Shown here: one piece after another, positions 16,298 through 19,937 of the stretch | How positions within the stretch are numbered: position 1 is the stretch's first letter | Layout of the letters: every line of letters starts with the position of its first letter | Origin: Candidatus Asgardarchaeum abyssi | GTDB taxonomy: Archaea > Asgardarchaeota > Asgardarchaeia > Asgardarchaeales > Asgardarchaeaceae | DNA: 31,421 nucleotides | Assembly: GCA_040225955.1 (NCBI GenBank) | Contig: JBECUL010000026.1 | Coordinates: 1-31,421, forward strand | Direction of reading: 5' to 3' | The notes under the pieces: model-generated | What the model saw: only the letters and a program-made list of their open reading frames with translations | The model's database searches: none | Told to the model about the DNA's origin: nothing | Position numbers and translations under genes: made by a program

Positions 16298-16439
16298 CCA
16301 ACGATATTAGTGAAATATTTATTTCATATAGGAATAATAAATATATTATTACGTGAATTTTCTCTAAAACACTGTTGAAAATCTAGAGATTACACTTATA
16401 AAATTTTTGAAAATAACAGTACTTCCGCACTATTTTCGA

Positions 16440-16700
16440 AATGAGTACGCTCCCTAGACACCAAGATCCGCCTCAGTCCTCCATGAATTTTCAAAATTCC
16501 CCAATAAAAATATTCCGCGCACACACCAAAAAGTCATGTGAAAGCATCGTACGCATCAAATATTAGAATAACCAGTAGACATCGCAATCACAAGTCATAT
16601 TGCTATCATCACCGGCGGCGGCCAGCTCTCACGCTCACACTTGTACGGGATACCACTAATAGTAATAACCTCAGTAACCTCAAACTCGACAACTCCCTCC
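16440..16700 (-). pseudogene. Decayed foreign coding fragment, possibly the 5' part of an IS200/IS605 tnpB
   Basis: GC-richer, strand-skewed patch. Broken minus-strand frames EVITISGIPYKCERESW (16622-16672) and ILKIHGGLRRILVSRE (16450-16497) follow an SD-like GGAGGGAG (16693-16700). TnpB resemblance is from memory only. Confidence 0.3.
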
Positions 16701-16955
16701 CAAACCAGCACAAAAACGTAAATTTGATTTTCATCTGCTCCGAATATCGATCATTTGATAAGACGATTGCCACGAAAACATCAATATCACAAGAACTTGT
16801 GTAGCATGCAAATTTAAAGGAGTATTGGGAAGTCTGTTATGGATTTAAAGAGTTTTTCGAAAGAATGTATAATTATGGTTTTTGAGAAAATCATAGGATT
16901 GAAAATATTTGAGAAATGAAATTACCACAGAAGAAAATCTAATTTTTCAAAAATA

Positions 16956-16989
16956 TTTTTAATTAAGATTTGTTTTTAATTAAGAATTG
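16956..16989. repeat. Tandem 17-bp direct repeat containing the palindrome TTAATTAA
   Basis: TTTTTAATTAAGATTTG / TTTTTAATTAAGAATTG (16 of 17 identical). Confidence 0.7.
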
Positions 16990-17087
16990 AGAATTGCCTT
17001 TCAAAATATTAAATACTTTGTGAGTATTGAGGTAAACAGCTTATCCAAATGTGGTGGCAATAAAATACTGAAAGATAATGTACTGCA

Positions 17088-17210
17088 ATGTGGGTTGTGG
17101 GGTTACCCTGAACAGAGTCAAGACCAATCACTTGCTCCCTATGAACTCAGAGGGAGCTGAGGTTAATGAGACCAAGGTGAATGTTCGCTCACCAATACGG
17201 ATATTCACTG
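17088..17210 (+). ncRNA. Structured RNA candidate, HgcC-like / orphan TnpB omega-RNA-like element
   Basis: GC-rich island. Stem GCTCCCT(17134-40)/AGGGAGC(17151-57) extends through TCA/TGA and GACC/GGTT. Stem GTGAATGTTCG(17177-87)/CGGATATTCAC(17198-208) has G.U pairs valid only on the + strand. Motifs ATGTGGG..GGGGTTACCCTGAAC and CTCCCTATGAAC..GAGGGA..GAGGTTAATG recall archaeal tnpB 3' ends/HgcC. Confidence 0.55.
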
Positions 17211-17234
17211 AACCAATTAGATGGTGGTATGTAG

Positions 17235-19937
17235 ATGCTGACTTTAAAAATTGCTTTCAGGAATATGAGAAGGAGGAAAATAAGAACAACAATAGCACTT
17301 ATTGGTGTCATAACCGCATCAGCTCTTTTTGTTGGCGTTAATTCAACAGTTGATATACTAACATATGAATTGGTTCAGAGTTTTACAGACTTTTTAGGCG
17401 ATTTTGATATTATGATATATGGTACTAGTTCAAATGCTTTTTTTGACCCAGAAAATATTACAAGTAAAGTATTAGAAGTAGATGCTGTAGATGTTGCTAT
17501 ACCGAGGTTAATATTTCGAGGAATAGCTACTAGTGAGGAGAATAAAACCACAGGATTACTTTTGGTCGGAATATATCCAGAACTTGATGATAGAATAGGA
17601 AGTTTTGAGGTTATCCAAGGAGAAATAAGCTTTGCTGAGAACGAGACTATTTTGTTATCAGATATAGCTAAATTTCTCAATGTTCAAGTAGGTGAGTTAC
17701 TAAATGTAACAACATATAATTTCATTAATAAGACATTTAAGATTACTCAACTCAAAATAGTTGGTATAGTAGACCAAGAGGGGAAATTGCCATTAAATAT
17801 GAAAAATGTAATCTTTATGAGTAAAGCTACATTACAAAAAATGTTAGGATTATATGATAACCAGAGTGCAAATTTTGTTTTTGTTCAGTTAAAGGAAGAC
17901 GTTTTTGATTATAATGATATTGAAGGGACAATAAACAAACTTGTAAGCATAGGAAGTGAAATACAGCTTAAAATAGGTCTTGATTATAATGTAGTACTCG
18001 TAAAGGGTAGGGTGCTTGAAAGGGTTTCAGCTTCATTGGAATCACAGAGGATAATGCTAAATATTTTTGTTTTCATTACCGTGCTTATGGCTGGTGTTTT
18101 AATAGTATCAACAATGTTAATGAATGTAAATGAGAGAATAAGGGAATTTGGAATTTTGAGATCTTTAGGGTTTGCAAGATATCAGATATTTCTTATTGTT
18201 CTAACCGAATCTATAATAATAGGGCTTGTTGGATCAGTAATTGGGTTATATGTAGGAATTATTTTGGGCTCAAAAATAATTACACCTATAGTTGTAGCTC
18301 GATTGACACAAGACACAACAGAAATTATCACTATATCAATAAATCCCATCACATTAGAGTATGGATTTTTAATAGGCTTCTTAGTTTGTATTGGAGCAGG
18401 ATTATTTCCAGCATATTATATTTATAATTTGACTCCTATTGAAGCTCTTTCAGCATCAGCTAGAAAAACAATACTTGTGGAAAAGCATTTAAAGAAGCTA
18501 AGTCCGGAAAGAGTTAGCTGGTCGTTGTTTTGGTCTGGTTTATTTATTTTTGCTACTATGAGTTTAATGGTCGTACTCTTTCCGCTCATTAGGTTTTATT
18601 TTGGGCAGAGTATTATTACTCTGGTTACATTTCTCTCACTAGGATTGTTATTGGTTGGCATAACAGTAATGTTCACCGCGATATTACCTGTTGTTGTGAG
18701 GTTATTAGCAAGGTTATTCTCAATATTCGCTAAGATCGAAGGTTCACTTGCTGCAAGAAATCTAATCAAATATAAAAGGAGAACTACACTGACATTCTTC
18801 ATGCTTACAACAAGTATCGCATTTATTTTTATGATAGGTTCACTAACACAGAGCTATGCTATTAATGCTCAAATGGCAATTAGATACGAAACAGGTTCTG
18901 ACATAGTTATATACTTAAACGAACCAGTTCCGGAGAGCATAATATCAAACATAACAGCAATCTCTGGAGTAAAAGCAGCTACACCTATAACGGCACCATT
19001 AACAGTAAAGGTTGGAGATTTGATCTTATGGAAGCAATATACAATTAAAGTCTACGGTATAAATGCAACAACATTTATGAGTGCAGTTTATGCAGAAGAT
19101 GCAATAATAGATTGGCCAAAATCGGAGAATCCATTCATGGCCCTTACTCAAAATAATGAGTCCATAGCGATTGCAACTGGATTGGCTCAAGCATTAAAAC
19201 TATCTGAAATGGATACTATTAGAGTGGAAATCTATGGAAAAAGCAAATTAATGAATGTAAGTATGTTGATATCCGCTCTACCAGCATTTTCATTTACAAA
19301 ATTCGAACAAAAAGCAGCAAGAAGCGAAGCTTTAATTTCTTTAGAAACTTACAAAAATCTGACTAGAGGCATTTTAACATACGAAAGAATTCTTGTAAGA
19401 GTAAAAGAGGGGTTCAATGTAGAAAGTATAGCTAATTCTATTAATAATTTAATAGGCACCGATTATGATATTCAAGTAATTACCACTCAAGAACTTATTG
19501 AGATGGCACAGGAAAGTTATTCACAAGTGTTACAACTTTTTATGACACTTTTATCCTTTGGAATAATAATCTCGGTTTTAGGTCATGTAACTTCTCTTTT
19601 AACTACGGTAAGAGAAAGAATATGGGAAATTGGAATTTTCAGAAGTATTGGTGTAAGCAAGGAACAGGTAATTCTAATTTTTATAGTAGAAGCTATCATT
19701 CTATCAATAGCGGGATACATTTGCGGGCTCTTAAGCAGCCTTATTGTAGTCACTGAAATTACATATACAAATAATCTAATGAGTGACATCCCCCTAGTTC
19801 TGACAATCCCTATAGATTTAGCTTCAGTAATATTTGCTCTTGTAATAGGAGTTTCCGCGATAGCATCATATATATTTACTAAAAAGCCTATAAGTATTAA
19901 TATAGTAGATGCTTTAAGATACGGGTTGAGGGAATGA
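17235..19937 (+). CDS. ABC transporter permease, MacB/LolE/FtsX family (two fused permease repeats)
   Basis: IAFRNMRRRKIRT and AARNLIKYKRRT N-motifs; VNERIREFGILRSLG and VRERIWEIGIFRSIG; two extracytoplasmic domains; GGTGG SD at 17223-17227. Confidence 0.93.
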   Translation: MLTLKIAFRNMRRRKIRTTIALIGVITASALFVGVNSTVDILTYELVQSFTDFLGDFDIMIYGTSSNAFFDPENITSKVLEVDAVDVAIPRLIFRGIATSEENKTTGLLLVGIYPELDDRIGSFEVIQGEISFAENETILLSDIAKFLNVQVGELLNVTTYNFINKTFKITQLKIVGIVDQEGKLPLNMKNVIFMSKATLQKMLGLYDNQSANFVFVQLKEDVFDYNDIEGTINKLVSIGSEIQLKIGLDYNVVLVKGRVLERVSASLESQRIMLNIFVFITVLMAGVLIVSTMLMNVNERIREFGILRSLGFARYQIFLIVLTESIIIGLVGSVIGLYVGIILGSKIITPIVVARLTQDTTEIITISINPITLEYGFLIGFLVCIGAGLFPAYYIYNLTPIEALSASARKTILVEKHLKKLSPERVSWSLFWSGLFIFATMSLMVVLFPLIRFYFGQSIITLVTFLSLGLLLVGITVMFTAILPVVVRLLARLFSIFAKIEGSLAARNLIKYKRRTTLTFFMLTTSIAFIFMIGSLTQSYAINAQMAIRYETGSDIVIYLNEPVPESIISNITAISGVKAATPITAPLTVKVGDLILWKQYTIKVYGINATTFMSAVYAEDAIIDWPKSENPFMALTQNNESIAIATGLAQALKLSEMDTIRVEIYGKSKLMNVSMLISALPAFSFTKFEQKAARSEALISLETYKNLTRGILTYERILVRVKEGFNVESIANSINNLIGTDYDIQVITTQELIEMAQESYSQVLQLFMTLLSFGIIISVLGHVTSLLTTVRERIWEIGIFRSIGVSKEQVILIFIVEAIILSIAGYICGLLSSLIVVTEITYTNNLMSDIPLVLTIPIDLASVIFALVIGVSAIASYIFTKKPISINIVDALRYGLRE

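Follow-up and report, generated by a model that had tools for sequence, protein, structure and literature searches.

Mobilised omega RNAs that stand alone can be used in trans by effectors compatible with them (Altae-Tran et al. 2021, summarised in PMC10691335). PATEs often encode omega RNAs that need TnpB supplied by other IS copies (Meers et al. 2023, PMC10055086). For IS607 elements, the core dinucleotide used by the serine recombinase lies at both junctions and the TAM is the target motif (10.1101/2023.11.20.567912); according to the same work, the donor is protected by a mismatch between right end and TAM at position -3.

The window, that is, the whole stretch of 31,421 nucleotides of Candidatus Asgardarchaeum abyssi DNA that was analysed, carries at 16996-17216 what is very probably an insertion, old and eroded, of a protein-less element that derives from an IS607-family transposon and is not autonomous, and the copy itself is most likely a fossil. 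A first-pass annotation had delimited an orphan structured RNA with tnpB remnants at 17045-17210, which was too short by comparison with the repeat unit. The features of the window copy are as follows.

16996..17216, + strand: whole gene-less IS607-derived mini-transposon of the short subfamily (family-profile nhmmer, 185 bits, and alignments)
16996..16998, + strand: left junction GCC, a conserved G followed by the CC crossover dinucleotide and a candidate TAM, by analogy with IS607
17009..17016, + strand: TATA-like box TTAAATAC, putatively from the parent tnpA promoter, conserved in all copies
17017..17027, + strand: left-end repeat TTTGTGAGTAT, single here, with two in siblings and parent IS elements
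17045..17107, + strand: frameshifted, AT-eroded remains of the tnpB zinc ribbon and C-terminal tail (DNA alignment to tnpB of contigs C97/C135 and C1)
17099..17118, + strand: GGGGU at 17099-17103, the 5' strand of a long-range helix, and a small hairpin at 17105-17118 (RNAalifold and pair counts)
17122..17164, + strand: central hairpin, core stem 17134-17139 with 17152-17157 (z -3.0)
17176..17209, + strand: terminal 12-bp hairpin closing the scaffold (z -3.9 on +, no signal on the - strand)
17210..17216, + strand: right end GAACCAA versus the consensus GAACCCC (family alignment), the same in three sister-strain assemblies
17217..17236, + strand: guide position, derived from the flank, all copies diverging completely past the right end

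Both hairpins of the first-pass annotation were found at 17122-17164 and 17176-17209, within a patch that is indeed GC-rich (about 41% GC versus about 25% in neighbouring intergenic DNA). Compared with dinucleotide shuffles, the former (-17.5 kcal/mol) gave z -3.0 on the + strand and z -1.6 on the - strand, and the latter (-13.0 kcal/mol, with three G.U pairs) gave z -3.9 and 0.0, respectively. Since the reverse complements of both hairpins give weaker z values, the + strand is the meaningful one, and its designation as the RNA strand was borne out by the better fold on + and by G.U variants in sibling copies that are workable on + alone. The whole 186-nt stretch was marginal against shuffles (z -1.6 on +, -1.75 on -), so that folding better than shuffled controls held for the two hairpins but not clearly for the stretch in full.

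In the assembly to which the window belongs (2.64 Mb in 189 contigs, 34% GC), a search returned about 20 look-alikes with 82-89% identity and one common 3' stop position, and an nhmmer profile recovered 18 full and about 6 partial copies with E values of 1e-54 to 1e-88. The copy number and these E values place the repeat far beyond chance. A search for genome copies had been proposed at the outset; the many that were found fixed the ends of the element, and none was attached to an intact tnpB. At the sharp 5' boundary, unrelated sequence is followed by GCC in every copy, and at the equally sharp 3' boundary ..CACTGAACCCC is followed by unrelated sequence. The family unit measures 220-243 bp and occurs as two subfamilies, one of 220-225 nt, to which the window copy belongs, and one of 242-243 nt with an internal duplication of about 19 nt. 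CC stands at both ends of all copies with the exception of the window copy, whose right end reads ACCAA.

No long ORF is attached to any copy, the longest frames ending in the element being 40-60 aa. Eight metagenome contigs bear the same gene-less element, some at the same sites and some at new ones, and it is absent from the nearest relatives among the genomes compared, which share only the phylum. The remark that no tnpB adjoins the patch was found to apply to every copy, in the genome and on the eight metagenome contigs. It had also been supposed that tnpB decayed in place; instead, every copy has the same internal deletion, sharp ends and unrelated flanks. An internal deletion and sharp ends common to all copies indicate that the element arrived already gene-less and that tnpB never stood at this locus. 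One metagenome contig carries a reduced form of about 110 nt (L039:150-260), in which the central and terminal hairpins directly follow the initial ~30 nt of the left end.

The 5' flanks have GCC as their sole constant, and position -4 is never G in 17 copies and is variable otherwise; as a guess, GCC may be the TAM. Removal of sibling copies from ORFs restored long frames equally well with GCC kept or with nothing kept. Pfam searches with the ORF halves at four sibling insertions detected no family spanning a junction, the search for homologues of the gene interrupted on C39 returned only the protein itself and one distant protein, and the empty site of the window copy had no match in the metagenome contigs. 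For 19 guides, second-site targets in the genome amounted to nothing beyond chance, one 19/20 AT-rich match being judged chance, and the 24-mer guide of the window copy likewise has no second-site match in the genome. Guides without such matches fit homing and retention rather than distant targeting. By crude ORF calling, the nearest downstream ORF of at least 90 aa lies on the opposite strand in 15 of the 18 copies, and the window copy is among the three exceptions; given the opposite-strand orientation in those 15, the element RNA would run antisense into the downstream ORF.

The left end of the mini-element matches that of the resident IS607, which consists of a serine-recombinase tnpA and a 416-aa tnpB. 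Common to this left end and those of full-length IS607 relatives are a GCC start, an ..AAC.GTT motif, a TTTAAAT-type TATA box and two GTGAG repeats abutting the tnpA ATG. The mini-element keeps these features in the same order and breaks off exactly at the would-be tnpA start, after which a scrap of the first zinc-knuckle region and then the tnpB tail follow. The box TTAAATAC is homologous to the TTTAAATG box located about 25 nt before the tnpA ATG in full-length elements and would presumably act as a promoter, with an RNA start predicted at about 17038-17045. An inverted copy of the left-end repeat sits in the loop of the terminal hairpin, and the left-end repeats together with this copy are candidate TnpA binding sites.

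For the right half, homology is to the tnpB 3' end and the right end on C97 and C135. The reading frame on these contigs is ..FMRGLGVALSGVKTDDLLP.., and ..CAGACCCC closes the element, past which the two contigs part; by nhmmer, positions 104-204 of the family profile match tnpB-linked right ends with E 2.8e-16. This homology sustains the earlier proposal that the patch derives from a tnpB 3' end with its omega-RNA scaffold. Contig C1 encodes an intact TnpB of 396 aa, in an element that ends ..GTGAACCCC, and the right ends of IS and mini-elements alike end ..ACCCC. The coding scraps of the first reading proved to be genuine relics of the tnpB 3' end. The piece at 17088-17107 (ATG TGG G.. GGG GTT ACC) aligns with QMWGSGVTPK of the intact C1 TnpB, to which the MWG.GVT scrap is closest in sequence, and also with the FMRGLGVALSGVKT region in the IS607 TnpB of C97/C135. 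Where one lost base had been assumed in the MWG region, the family consensus shows two to be missing.

Full-length homologues of the C97 fragment are 416-aa TnpB proteins encoded directly after a 208-aa MerR-HTH plus resolvase gene, and this tnpA-tnpB IS607 architecture occurs in an ENA contig, an Asgardarchaeia MAG, Thermococcus kodakarensis and others. In the genome of the window, one end of C44 holds tnpA with the first 37 tnpB codons, and C12, C97 and C135 have more tnpB pieces at their ends; such tnpA and tnpB pieces at contig ends point to a resident IS607 fragmented by the assembly. Several TnpB genes are present elsewhere in the genome, as had been anticipated. The homologous left end, the zinc-knuckle scrap and the tnpB tail together mark the mini-element as an internal-deletion derivative of an IS607-clade element. 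Its copies are dispersed, contain neither transposase nor tnpB, and have ends homologous to those of an element with tnpA and tnpB, as a non-autonomous IS607 derivative should. An IS that bears tnpB and has this very terminal hairpin, which would be the exact parent, was sought without success in the genome, the metagenome and the genome collections; a core-motif scan of genome-collection contigs gave no match, and a metagenome scan for a tnpB-linked parent gave eight matches, all gene-less. Relative to the mini-element, the resident IS607 is only about 84% matched in the central hairpin and has a different terminal hairpin, and the ends match a related IS607 clade, not the exact parent.

Other right ends without genes were noted in the same genome. 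Orphan C97-type IS607 right ends lacking tnpB, 90-99% identical, lie at C61:3617-3752, C135:1709-1836, C63:1-77 and C73:3395-3440, that on C135 following a tnpA fragment at 1533-1700; these fragments make up another group of guide-scaffold relics. At C28:1886-2089, a C1-type tnpB tail has become a pseudogene with in-frame stops and still ends ..GTGAACCC.

Six tnpB-linked right ends were aligned with the final ~132 nt from each of 17 copies (A3). Folding of this alignment with RNAalifold returned the central and terminal hairpins, one small hairpin and a long-range helix in which GGGGU pairs with the terminal ACCCC. In this structure 97.2% of cells are paired and 8 pairs are changed on both sides; none of 500 column shuffles reached any of four measures, and slid partners pair at 38-58%. 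Changes on both sides affect 4 of the 9 pairs of the central hairpin across MITE and IS members, and the long-range helix, being invariant, has no covariation support. Within the mini-element family, G.U changes in the terminal hairpin are viable on the + strand alone, and the window copy shows one GC-to-AU double change there. Derivation from a tnpB 3' end, termination at the right end, a variable guide that follows and a conserved secondary structure with covariation support were all found in the right half, which, as far as sequence can tell, has the anatomy of a TnpB omega-RNA scaffold ending at the transposon boundary, with the flank as guide.

The family arose by internal deletion of an IS607 parent, of which four parts remain: everything from the GCC junction to the tnpA start codon, TATA box and short repeats included; a fragment of the zinc-ribbon region of tnpB; the omega-RNA scaffold, made up of the final ~130 nt of tnpB and the right end; and the ..ACCCC boundary on the right. 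For live copies, a mechanism can be proposed by analogy with published systems. The resident IS607 serine recombinase TnpA would move the element by means of the CC crossover dinucleotide, and the left-end promoter would transcribe the scaffold together with the flank, which would serve as the guide. TnpB made elsewhere would load this RNA and cut the empty site (GCC plus guide match) after excision, following which homologous recombination would restore the element.

The resident IS607 TnpB clade, comprising Asgard and Thermococcus proteins that are 67-100% identical, reads ADRQFVGAFNI, so that the canonical RuvC-III Asp is Gln throughout the clade; ISDra2 TnpB has DRD at this place, with the catalytic D361. 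The RuvC-I Asp and the RuvC-II Glu are retained. The Gln at the canonical RuvC-III Asp makes the nuclease activity of the clade uncertain, and the clade probably falls in the archaeal serine-recombinase-linked 'rearranged' branches of PMC10691335. The Asgard IS607 TnpB is 77% identical to that of Thermococcus kodakarensis KOD1, with left- and right-end motifs in common too, and such sequence likeness suggests that IS607 was recently transferred between archaeal phyla. On a further reading, which is very unlikely, the ~22 gene-less copies would form a dispersed, promoter-driven guide library for the Gln-variant TnpB (ADRQ..NI); if this protein binds DNA without cutting, or cuts differently, the mini-elements would be RNA-guided regulators or antisense generators at their insertion sites, not homing aids, and the window copy would be a retired member located in an ABC permease leader.

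The window copy stands apart from its siblings in state of preservation. With 185 bits it is the lowest-scoring full copy by family-profile nhmmer (243-295 for the other full copies), and it differs from the subfamily consensus at 43 of 216 aligned sites (20%), other copies differing by 1-7%. Its changes run from GC to AT in 29 cases and from AT to GC in 10, leaving 41% GC versus about 52%. It has one left-end repeat instead of two, and its GAACCAA right end has lost two of the five long-range pairs and the usual CC junction. The first-pass annotation had judged the fold to look intact, which overstated the case. Of 30 consensus pairs 26 are kept, and the energy of the consensus structure is -19.8 kcal/mol versus -28 to -38 kcal/mol in siblings, the MFE being -40 versus -48 to -60.

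Three sister-strain assemblies, in which the permease is 99% identical, have the same insertion with the same defects, and such an orthologous copy dates the insertion before the strain split. In the comparison of 16996-17216 with L045:2261-2481, L047 and L046, the element differed at 11 of 221 sites, the adjacent 2703-nt gene at 21 sites and the 4-fold sites of that gene at 2 of 359. Of the 11 element differences, ten are transitions; G:C-to-A:T changes that only the window strain shows account for at least 7, and most of the changes that can be polarised against the family consensus are of this private type. This between-strain excess may reflect local hypermutation or an assembly effect, and a sibling pair (C55 versus L040) has no such excess, with 1/243 versus 6/509. 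Change faster than at 4-fold sites leaves no purifying selection detectable on the window copy and implies that it is probably inert. Fixed before the strain split, deprived of structural and end features and under no detectable constraint, the window copy is most likely a fossil. Some residual function is still conceivable, given that two of its hairpins are intact and that one pair shows a compensatory change.

Downstream of the element, on the same strand, an FtsX/MacB-type permease gene begins with the ATG at 17235, a start deduced from N-terminal conservation and from the equal length of homologues. The guide position covers both this ATG and an SD-like GGTGGT (17223-17228). With the same orientation and a right end about 19 nt upstream, a transcript from the TATA box would run into the permease gene, and this sense-oriented position about 19 nt before the start codon may be the main present effect of the window copy. 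Upstream, positions 16396-16722 belong to another repeat family, unrelated to the mini-element and rich in C on the + strand, with units of about 330 nt and at least 15 genome copies at 94-99% identity, many of them about 43 nt from contig ends. That repeat is absent or rearranged at the same site in the sister strain L045, which characterises it as a young polymorphic insertion. No inverted repeats were detected in 16380-16800, and the RNA fold there is no better than shuffles.

Several other readings of the window copy have to be weighed against the fossil insertion. The first-pass annotation had favoured a guide RNA still at work, and in the corresponding scheme the copy would be a stand-alone omega RNA that is still live, with its own TATA box driving transcription, a TnpB, maybe one with an altered RuvC-III, using it in trans, and its guide reaching into the 5' UTR and start codon of the permease gene. 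Such action in trans is plausible for the family, of which the window copy is the most eroded member. The kept TATA box, the two intact 3' hairpins with z -3 to -4, the GC-to-AU compensatory pair, the TnpB and IS607 tnpA genes in the genome and the published use of stand-alone omega RNAs in trans (PMC10691335) speak for it. The lowest score in the family, the loss of 4 of 30 consensus pairs including two of the five in the guide-adjacent closing helix, the ACCAA right end, a between-strain divergence about 5-9 times faster than that of synonymous sites and a guide whose sole target is its own flank make this scheme unlikely. Alternatively, the element could serve the FtsX-type ABC permease (17235-19937) by donating a promoter, a structured 5' leader acting as an anti-SD switch, or both. 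Such a service would agree with the shared strand, with a right end lying about 19 nt before the ATG and 7 nt before the SD-like GGTGGT, with the fixation of the insertion in four related assemblies and with a terminal-hairpin loop, CACC, that could pair with the SD. The loop is, however, found in all copies, whatever their neighbours, and as a family-wide feature was not shaped for the permease; moreover, the element changes faster than neutral sites, and in another Asgard MAG the region before an orthologue with 60% identity is free of the element, with just 71 alignable nt about the start. A part in permease expression is thus quite improbable.

Membership of the HgcC RNA family (Rfam RF00062), raised in the first-pass annotation, could appeal to Gomes-Filho et al. 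(2015), who tie HgcC to a tetraloop motif of tnpB 3' sense-overlapping RNAs (PMC4615843), and to the Pfam domain of the parent TnpB, which is named after M. jannaschii MJ0013. The curated model was nevertheless unmatched even at E<=10 in the window, two consensus-like siblings, the IS right ends, that of the parent type included, and the C1 tnpB end. An Rfam scan of the whole window at the gathering score returned nothing, and at E<=10 the 16800-17400 region and five related loci (siblings, IS right ends and the C1 tnpB end) gave chance matches and no HgcC, which renders the assignment extremely unlikely.

Under the preferred reading, an eroded IS607-derived insertion, the conspicuous GC-rich structured patch is ordinary mobile-element debris, and no annotation as a new RNA gene or permease riboswitch is needed. 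The window copy in particular adds little. The family itself offers a clean case, from an archaeon, of a mini-transposon derived from IS607 that bears a promoter and encodes nothing but a guide RNA; it could serve tests of omega-RNA use in trans and of TAM/core logic (GCC versus CCC) in Asgard or Thermococcus systems.

Compared with HgcC, the Asgard family is likewise a GC-rich structured RNA in an AT-rich archaeon with a historical tie to tnpB 3' ends, but the HgcC covariance model was unmatched at all thresholds tried. PATEs (PMC10055086; for a Halobacterium PATE-derived RNA, PMC4615843) resemble the family as protein-less, multicopy fusions of left and right ends for which TnpB would be needed in trans. 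PATEs are, however, Y1-transposase IS200/IS605 elements with subterminal hairpins and a 4-5-nt TAM, whereas in the Asgard family the ends are of IS607 type (GCC/CC junctions, with direct and inverted repeats that are short) and the 5' flanks hold no conserved motif. The IS607/IStron elements of Zedaveinyte et al. (10.1101/2023.11.20.567912) share with it a serine recombinase beside tnpB, found for the Asgard family in the related IS607 elements, a core dinucleotide (putatively CC in the Asgard family) at both junctions and a scaffold that runs to the boundary. By analogy, the position -3 logic of the IStron (TGGG versus TCGG) would correspond to GCC versus CCC in the Asgard family. On the RNA strand the putative core reads CC, where that of the IStron reads GG; the Asgard element holds neither intron nor genes, and its TAM is a candidate by analogy. 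The likeness to the stand-alone omega RNAs summarised in PMC10691335 lies in a mobilised scaffold plus guide without effector or transposase and in effector-bearing loci elsewhere in the genome. Those presented there were shown to be active in trans, as the Asgard family may be, which differs in its descent from a serine-recombinase IS607, with the tnpA promoter fused to the scaffold. Elements of this kind have already been published as standalone omega RNAs and omega-RNA-bearing PATEs, and the Asgard family is a further member.
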